In this document: one piece after another, positions 8,316 through 8,588 of the stretch | Layout: every line of letters begins with the position of its first letter | Numbering within the stretch: position 1 is the first letter of the stretch | NCBI GenBank assembly: GCA_020429915.1 | Contig: JAGQKV010000002.1 | Location: forward strand, 128,061 to 192,060 | Length of the DNA stretch: 64,000 bases | From: Candidatus Omnitrophota bacterium | Lineage (GTDB): Bacteria; Omnitrophota; Gorgyraeia; Zapsychrales; Zapsychraceae | Direction of reading: 5' to 3' | Program-made: the position numbers and the translations under genes | Notes under the pieces: generated by a model | What the model saw: the letters and a program-made list of their open reading frames with translations, nothing else | What the model was told of the DNA's origin: nothing | Database searches by the model: none

Positions 8316-8483
8316 CTATTGGGATTTAGACTTCAACCATTTATCGATTTCCCGCTTGTCAAATCGCCAGACGCCGCCGATCTTCATGCCGGAAATCTTC
8401 TTTTGATTCAGCCAGTTGTAAATGGTCTGTTTGCGCAGTTTGAGATACTTGGCCAAGTCGTCCACATCCAGGAGTTCGTTCAT
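8316..8483 (-). CDS. Small excisionase/MerR-family helix-turn-helix DNA-binding protein (55 aa); absent from the ORF track
   Basis: Reverse-complement translation MNELLDVDDLAKYLKLRKQTIYNWLNQKKISGMKIGGVWRFDKREIDKWLKSKSQ matches the excisionase-family HTH signature (LxxxxxTIYxW...GxxxRF). First gene after the AT-rich promoter, 54 nt upstream of pilMN. Confidence 0.6.
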   Translation of the reverse strand: MNELLDVDDLAKYLKLRKQTIYNWLNQKKISGMKIGGVWRFDKREIDKWLKSKSQ

Positions 8484-8559
8484 GGCAGGGATCCCTCGTC
8501 AGTTAGGCCGAAATGCCGCGGTGAGACATAAAATAACCCAAAATACTTAATCAAATTTC

Positions 8560-8588
8560 ATTACACTATAACTGACTTACCTTGTCAA
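8560..8588 (-). promoter_or_regulatory. Sigma70-type promoter for the HTH-pilMNOPQBC-pilin operon
   Basis: On the minus strand: TTGACA (8583-8588), 17 nt, TGTAAT (8560-8565), inside a markedly AT-rich 140-nt intergenic region. Confidence 0.45.

Follow-up and report, generated by a model that had tools for sequence, protein, structure and literature searches.

Results

The HTH gene and its product

The stretch of Omnitrophota DNA analysed here (64 kb, hereafter the window) carries on its minus strand a short gene, the HTH gene (8316..8483), that runs from an ATG at 8483 to a TAG stop codon at 8318..8316 and codes in 55 codons for the product MNELLDVDDLAKYLKLRKQTIYNWLNQKKISGMKIGGVWRFDKREIDKWLKSKSQ, a winged-helix protein of 55 aa (HTH_17/TIGR01764) that is the leader cistron of a set of pilus genes. 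The sequence GAGGG at 8493..8497 (minus strand), 9 nt 5΄ of the ATG, is its likely Shine-Dalgarno site. The protein matches the Pfam family HTH_17 (PF12728) with 61.8 bits (cut-off 27, E 7.4e-17) over profile positions 1–50 of 51. A search against TIGR01764, the excisionase-family DNA-binding domain to which an earlier note on this DNA had pointed, gave 46.3 bits (cut-off 28.8); with both profiles above their cut-offs, the excisionase-family HTH ORF of 55 codons proposed in that note is genuine, and we have practically no doubt that the gene is real.

The same note had called the gene unannotated. This is correct for the first-stage ORF track, from which it was absent because it is under 60 aa, but not for NCBI, where an identical protein, derived from a MAG, is already entered under the generic name 'helix-turn-helix domain-containing protein [Candidatus Omnitrophica bacterium]'. 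Its relatives at JGI are labelled 'excisionase family DNA binding protein'. A tblastn search for a second copy in the 64-kb window gave a single other match (E 0.001 over 37 aa); this paralogue candidate lies at the 5΄ end of a 172-aa ORF without clear HTH character, and was rejected.

The AlphaFold (AF2) model of the protein (pLDDT 89.3) has the topology β1-α1-α2-β2-β3-α3, a winged helix that ends after helix 3, at residue 55. When the model was compared with the PDB by Foldseek, the best matches were the BldC chains of the DNA complexes 6AMA and 6AMK (TM 0.67, probability 1.0, 22% identity), followed by RacA, Pukovnik Xis, Tn916 Xis, RdfS and the DNA-binding domain of pSK1 Par. The E-values of this fold search were weak, as is expected from the size of the query. 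Searches of the PDB by sequence (phmmer) and by profile gave no real match to the HTH protein, and BldC was not found in them. The best reading of the modelled fold is that of a small stand-alone winged helix of the BldC/Xis structural type.

The pilus operon and the genes around it

The HTH stop codon and the start of pilMN (8261) are separated by exactly 54 nt, the distance given in the earlier note. This spacer (8262..8315, minus strand) carries an AGGAG ahead of the pilMN ATG. An automated scan found no terminator-like site in it, and its predicted RNA fold is ordinary (z-score 0.04), which argues against an attenuator. The pilMN gene (6732..8261, minus strand) codes for a protein of 509 aa that plausibly is a PilM-PilN fusion, since it has an N-terminal match to PilM_2 (E 1.3e-12) and a weak C-terminal match to PilN (E 2.1e-4, under the Pfam cut-off); with TIGR01175 it scores 69 bits, under the cut-off of that profile. 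It is followed, on the same strand, by the genes for PilO (6087–6728), a PilP-like protein (5617–6090), the secretin (4065–5705), the PilB/GspE ATPase (2322–4061), PilC/GspF (1076–2305) and a pilin (621–1061). The genes downstream of pilMN (621..6728) are tightly packed, and it is highly probable that the HTH gene is co-transcribed with pilMN.

The earlier note took the HTH gene for the first cistron of the pilus operon. It does head the assembly sub-operon, in an order found in 80/80 loci, but it is not provably the first gene of the whole cluster, because a gene for a GspK-like protein lies upstream on the same strand and an automated scan found no terminator between the HTH gene and the same-strand genes upstream of it. 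These genes (8630–13270, minus strand) code for an 836-aa TPR protein, ExbB, ExbD, a 148-aa proline-rich protein, a 95-aa Cys-rich membrane protein and the 109-aa protein with the GspK-like N-terminus. Among 80 Omnitrophota loci, the upstream position is kept by ExbB and ExbD in ~53, by the 95-aa protein in 43, by the 109-aa protein in 21 and by the 148-aa protein in 7, which hints at an ExbBD-type energising module tied to the pilus cluster. Some lineages have a further small gene, set a few hundred bases 5΄ of the HTH gene, as in locus L064 (5160–5366, 68 aa) and on contig L204 (2254–2466, 70 aa). The L204 protein has a precomputed Pfam match to DUF2582, which we take to be a winged helix, and the small gene is a possible further DNA-binding candidate for the region.

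An E-value scan of 8200–8700 with Rfam gave no match, and therefore no known riboswitch or leader lies at the HTH gene. Elsewhere in the cluster, a c-di-GMP-I riboswitch aptamer (RF01051, 57.5 bits, gathering score 35) is found at 215–296 (minus strand); it lies between the first pilin gene (621–1061) and the next one of the cluster (L001 18440–18856), which begins ~170 nt further 3΄, and the PilB/GspE ATPase (2322–4061) bears an MshEN domain according to precomputed Pfam matches. Taken together, the aptamer and the MshEN domain suggest that the pilus cluster may be coupled to c-di-GMP at two levels.

Conservation of the HTH gene across Omnitrophota

A large protein collection holds 612 relatives of the HTH protein, and the best 120 of the 612 are all at least 80% identical. 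A relative is encoded in 320 species-representative genomes, and 80 of these loci were compared; they were picked by means of two conserved peptide patterns, so the set is biased towards close orthologues. The earlier note had let its reading depend on the conservation of the small ORF upstream of pilM, and a PilMN homologue lies directly 3΄ of the HTH gene in all 80 species loci. By a first-ATG heuristic for gene starts, the HTH stop codon and the pilMN start overlap in ~34 of these loci, in 21 of them by 4 nt, and the other gaps range up to ~100 nt.

In every one of the 80 loci the HTH protein is the most conserved protein of the neighbourhood, with 67–91% identity versus 22–57% for PilMN (median identities: HTH 78%, PilMN 28%, secretin 45%, ExbB 61%). 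Comparison of the window copy of the gene with 74 orthologues gave a pN of 0.13 and a median pS of 0.90, which is saturated; the likeness thus reflects strong selection on the HTH protein and not recent shared ancestry, the depth of divergence among the loci being judged by protein identity and by the saturation of synonymous sites. Across an alignment of 23 homologues 31 of the 55 columns are invariant, among them those of the recognition helix QTIYNWL and of the wing GGVWRFD. In most relatives the C-terminus extends into a short basic tail, which is truncated in the window copy.

An exhaustive profile search set a compact group of orthologues, some 25 clusters at 50% identity that score above 85 bits, apart from the ~10,000 ordinary HTH_17 relatives that lie below it. 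Contig L204 carries a divergent HTH homologue of 110 aa that adjoins pilM or is fused to it. Another homologue, P0141 (88 bits), is set among small unrelated genes and, judging by its score and surroundings, marks the edge of the orthologous group. Some distant HTH_17 relatives (P0134, P0144, P0146, P0150 and P0175) carry 3–5 tandem copies of the domain within one polypeptide, as is expected of a domain that reads tandem direct repeats.

A conserved promoter-like element upstream of the HTH gene

The gap upstream of the HTH ORF is 146 nt long, and the GC content at 8550–8649 (0.24) is the lowest between 6000 and 11000, which bears out the AT-rich location described in the earlier note. A perfect -35 hexamer, TTGACA (8583..8588, minus strand), is followed 17 nt further 3΄ by the -10-like hexamer TGTAAT (8560..8565, minus strand). 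Promoter geometry, with transcription starting 6–9 nt after the -10, places the predicted start at 8551..8554 (minus strand) and would give a 5΄ UTR of ~69 nt. The -35 hexamer stands at the same position in 71/71 aligned loci, in one of them as TTGACT, and TTGACA-17-T[C/T/G]TAAT is present in 71 of the 72 loci with enough upstream sequence; these alignments are of homologous regions, and the counts across loci are not independent events. The distance from the end of the -10 to the HTH ATG varies from 32 to 179 nt. Since the promoter is kept despite saturated synonymous sites, selection must act on the non-coding element. At 17-nt spacing and with at most one mismatch to TTGACA/TATAAT, the 64-kb window holds two sites versus 0.06 expected. 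On the strength of this sequence conservation, the TTGACA-17-TBTAAT element probably is the promoter.

The -10 hexamer is peculiar at position 2, where the 71 loci have C (28), T (37) or G (6, including the window copy) and never A. In sigma70 promoters, it is the A at this position that normally nucleates melting. The description of a near-consensus sigma70 promoter in the earlier note thus holds for the -35 and the spacing, kept in 71/72 loci, but not for the -10, which is without A at position 2 in every locus. The window promoter combines a perfect -35, a 17-bp spacer and a T at position 6 of the -10; an automated promoter scan missed it because the sole mismatch of its -10 falls on position 2. 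Canonical -10 hexamers (TATAAT, TATATT and TATACT) follow other TTGACA or TTGGCA sites in the window and in the loci, which indicates, in a comparison of small counts, that the promoters of the organism normally use A at position 2. Other promoter-like sites of the window, all on the minus strand, are TTGGCA-17-TATAAT at 19886–19914, TTGACA-16-TATACT at 34268 and TTGACA-16-TATATT at 39365; the last two both start with TTGACAAACAT and have TGA immediately ahead of the -10.

Could another hexamer serve as the -10? No hexamer at a workable distance from TTGACA, in another register or on the opposite strand, has both the A of position 2 and the T of position 6, save TATnnT, which is present in 68/71 loci (TATAGT at 8565..8570, minus strand, in the window), overlaps TGTAAT and lies only 12 nt from TTGACA. 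A sigma54 element (GG-N10-GC) was not seen when the gap upstream of the HTH gene was read by eye. In most loci an A-rich stretch abuts the -35, with A at -7 in 64/71; it resembles a proximal UP element, and the window copy is less A-rich. Contig L204 has a different promoter-like sequence, TGATATACT, and carries neither the TTGACA-17-TBTAAT element nor a repeat array.

Phased direct repeats over the promoter

The TTGACA-anchored consensus of the loci, TTGACA aaGTAAGTcTATTATrk TyTAAT tAAGTtTAgaTAAGt, contains the word GTAAGT within the spacer. In the window, GTAAGT lies at 8580..8575 and overlaps the spacer repeat TAAGTCAGTTAT (8568..8579, minus strand; motif TAAGT-N3-TTAT), which is the candidate operator unit. 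A second in-phase TAAGT (8545..8549, minus strand) stands at +39 from the start of TTGACA, just 3΄ of the predicted transcription start. With one GTAAGT and one further TAAGT, the window promoter is comparatively poor in repeats.

Near the promoter the density of GTAAG is 10.7/kb on the gene strand versus 0.33/kb on the other strand and 0.69/kb in the background. Between -50 and +60, 91 of 96 copies share a single 10-nt phase (-42, -32, -22, -12, +8, +38, +48 and +58 from the start of TTGACA), and 53 of 58 distances between pairs are exact multiples of 10. In-phase copies (one or more) occur in 64/71 loci and are absent from 7/71. The placement of the repeats differs by lineage, some having them in the spacer as well as 3΄ of the -10, others as 2–3 tandem copies upstream of the -35, while the phase is constant. 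Lineages with repeats upstream of the -35 also bear a distal copy ~100 nt upstream. In the loci L043–L081, which belong to lineages with upstream arrays, a distal element lies ~60–110 nt upstream of TTGACA (for example L064 5830–5870) and reads (t)ATTATAATc-TAAGTAAGTyT-ATTATA, with a conserved CCGACG/CCGTCG word behind it. This distal element could act as an additional promoter or, by looping, as a further binding site.

The array is largely specific to this promoter within the sequence covered by the scan, that is, the 12-kb neighbourhoods and one 64-kb window: 54 phased TAAGT pairs lie upstream of the HTH gene versus 3 in the remaining 885 kb, both strands counted. The motif TAAGTNNNTTAT has one match in the 64-kb window, within the promoter spacer (8579..8568), and ~45 of its 53 matches in the related loci lie just upstream of the HTH gene. 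A metagenome scan with AGTAAGTNTNAGTAAGT returned at least 120 loci, and among the matches listed 4 are upstream of an HTH homologue; the remaining matches, without HTH and pilus homologues, are probably due to chance, and the scan bears neither way on a regulon.

Discussion

Our results show that a gene coding for a small winged-helix protein stands at the head of the pilus assembly genes throughout the Omnitrophota loci compared, behind a promoter element over which direct repeats are laid out in strict phase. The reading towards which we lean, at a little better than even chances, is that a small regulator of the BldC/Xis type binds phased repeats over its own promoter and thereby controls the type IVa pilus operon. 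In this model, the operon would be transcribed from the conserved sigma70-type promoter, with its perfect -35 and 17-bp spacer, set within same-strand GTAAGT/TAAGT repeats; several copies of the HTH protein would line up head-to-tail along these repeats, all on one face of the DNA, in the manner of BldC and Xis, and this binding would set the transcription of the HTH gene and of the pilus genes, an autoregulation that could be of either sign. As far as position in the sequence is a guide, repression would be suggested by the sites in the spacer and at +2 to +22, and activator dependence by those from about -48 to -68 combined with a -10 that has no melting A.

That the HTH protein itself is what binds the TAAGT repeats seems to us about as well founded as the model as a whole, with the balance slightly in favour. 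We assign the repeats to it because its fold is one that reads direct repeats and the array is confined to this promoter, and because neither the recognition helix nor the repeat word changes where the array shifts relative to the promoter. The autoregulation suggested in the earlier note thereby gains a candidate operator, phased direct repeats confined to the HTH promoter, with the binding by the HTH protein inferred. The other suggestion of that note, coupling to DNA uptake, found no footing in what was covered here, namely the family, fold, gene order and promoter of the HTH gene.

How do known proteins of this fold compare? BldC of Streptomyces, a MerR-like protein of 68 residues, binds direct repeats head-to-tail, in numbers that vary, and distorts the DNA (PMC5859096). 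Both BldC and the HTH protein consist of one winged-helix domain, of 55–68 residues, without a dimerisation or effector domain, and the variable number of same-orientation repeats bound by BldC matches the variable number and position of the TAAGT repeats. However, identity in the structural alignment is ~22%, at which the same broad superfamily may hold and orthology is not implied. The BldC repeat is AATT-N4-C, with four copies in a 36-mer, whereas here the word is GTAAGT with an exact 10-bp period. BldC is moreover a pleiotropic regulator that acts on many targets, and its gene does not lead a pilus operon; the binding of the HTH protein is predicted only. Similarly, the recombination directionality factors of the Xis type (lambda, Pukovnik and Tn916 Xis, and RdfS) share the HTH_17/TIGR01764 family and fold and oligomerise on DNA, and RdfS oligomerises and binds its own promoter (PMC11963761). 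The HTH locus differs from theirs in having no integrase, att site or mobile element nearby and a position that is fixed across the phylum, and it differs from RdfS, which has no clear consensus motif, by the sharp repeat word at its promoter. Mycobacteriophage D29 Gp36 represses via direct repeats (PMC12266134); it is likewise a small MerR-like protein that oligomerises weakly and represses the genes downstream, although it is phage-encoded and its repeats are GC-rich, and the likeness is one of description and not of direct comparison. With the classical MerR proteins, the HTH protein shares a related winged-helix domain and a conserved site within the -35/-10 spacer, where MerR proteins bind. 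In contrast to these, it is only 55 aa long in total, without a C-terminal coiled coil or effector region, its spacer measures the optimal 17 bp and not 19–20 bp, and its repeats are direct whereas the MerR operator is palindromic.

Some of our results do not sit easily with the model that we favour. The repeats are few at the window promoter, and 7/71 loci have no in-phase TAAGT. The L204 contig keeps the linkage of HTH and pilM with a different promoter (TGATATACT) and no array. The extreme conservation of the HTH protein is unusual for the regulator of a single operon, and may mean additional partners or many more targets. It is in line with this last point that the protein could be a DNA-binding or architectural protein while another factor, of the OmpR/PhoB type, binds the repeats, or that its main targets lie elsewhere and its position at pilM is mere co-expression. 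Identities of 67–91% at saturated synonymous sites are more than a local regulator would lead one to expect, and the sites were scanned in the 12-kb neighbourhoods and one 64-kb window only. Direct repeats with a period of 10–11 bp are also typical sites of response regulators of the OmpR/PhoB type, which leaves room for a different protein to bind the array; response regulators too are described as binding tandem direct repeats (PMC5859096). Against these readings stand the near confinement of the arrays to the HTH promoter within 885 kb and the 64-kb window, the constancy of recognition helix and repeat word across lineages that have moved the array, and a conserved neighbourhood that has no response-regulator gene. 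We consider it unlikely that either version holds. The invariant adjacency to pilMN, with its frequent 4-nt overlap, and the far higher conservation of the HTH protein than of the pilus proteins would also suit a protein that is no transcription factor but a cytoplasmic accessory of the pilus machine, coupled translationally to PilMN and acting, for example, as a partner of the PilM platform or as a handler of imported DNA; yet both its fold and its conserved residues mark it as a winged helix that reads DNA, and the promoter of its own gene bears a conserved cis-element, which makes such a role very unlikely.

The family names suggest something else again, a true excisionase (RDF) or a MADS-type defence HTH left behind by a mobile element. 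The best NCBIfam match of the protein is in fact MAD1 (NF047737), and there are matches to PHROG_66 'excisionase and transcriptional regulator' (E 1e-10) and to the PADLOC model mad1 (36 bits). The MAD1 score, however, is 69.9 bits where the cut-off is 80, the three upstream neighbours gave no match when scanned with PADLOC, and the Pfam labels of the genes up to 10 kb away on each side include neither an integrase nor a methyltransferase, nor any other gene of mobile elements or defence. The chromosomal context is identical in 80 species, and purifying selection is strong over a deep divergence. Context and MAD1 score together effectively exclude an excisionase or a defence remnant, and 'excisionase' is here the label of a fold and not of a function, given the lack of a neighbouring integrase or mobile element and a chromosomal context that does not change across the phylum.

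A bolder version of our regulatory model can be drawn from the -10. The promoter would recruit RNA polymerase very well, through its perfect -35, its 17-bp spacer and, in most relatives, the adjoining A-rich stretch, and be unable to melt alone, since its -10 has no A at position 2, until remodelled by a BldC-like filament of the HTH protein; an activator that is the first gene of its own operon would then make a bistable switch by positive feedback, between free-living and attached cells. That the HTH protein is in this way the master on/off switch of pilus-based host attachment throughout the Omnitrophota appears distinctly unlikely to us at present.

What is new in these observations? The domain family, the fold and the generic annotation of the HTH gene are already known, and what is new is its link to the pilus operon and a well-defined candidate operator. 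In the searchable literature we found no paper on the HTH gene, on its linkage to pilM or on the promoter/repeat element, and nothing on the regulation of Omnitrophota pili. The Omnitrophota are uncultured, mostly ultra-small bacteria, and a phylum-conserved candidate regulator with a sharply defined candidate operator gives an experimental handle that does not need a cultured organism. Type IVa pili are near-universal in this phylum, where they probably serve to attach the cells to hosts or prey (PMC10066038). The -10 that always avoids the melting-critical A is a real oddity, and may be a natural case for the study of factor-dependent promoter opening. If our reading is true, the pili of the Omnitrophota would be a second physiological system for small winged helices that read direct repeats, beyond Streptomyces development and the excision of mobile elements.
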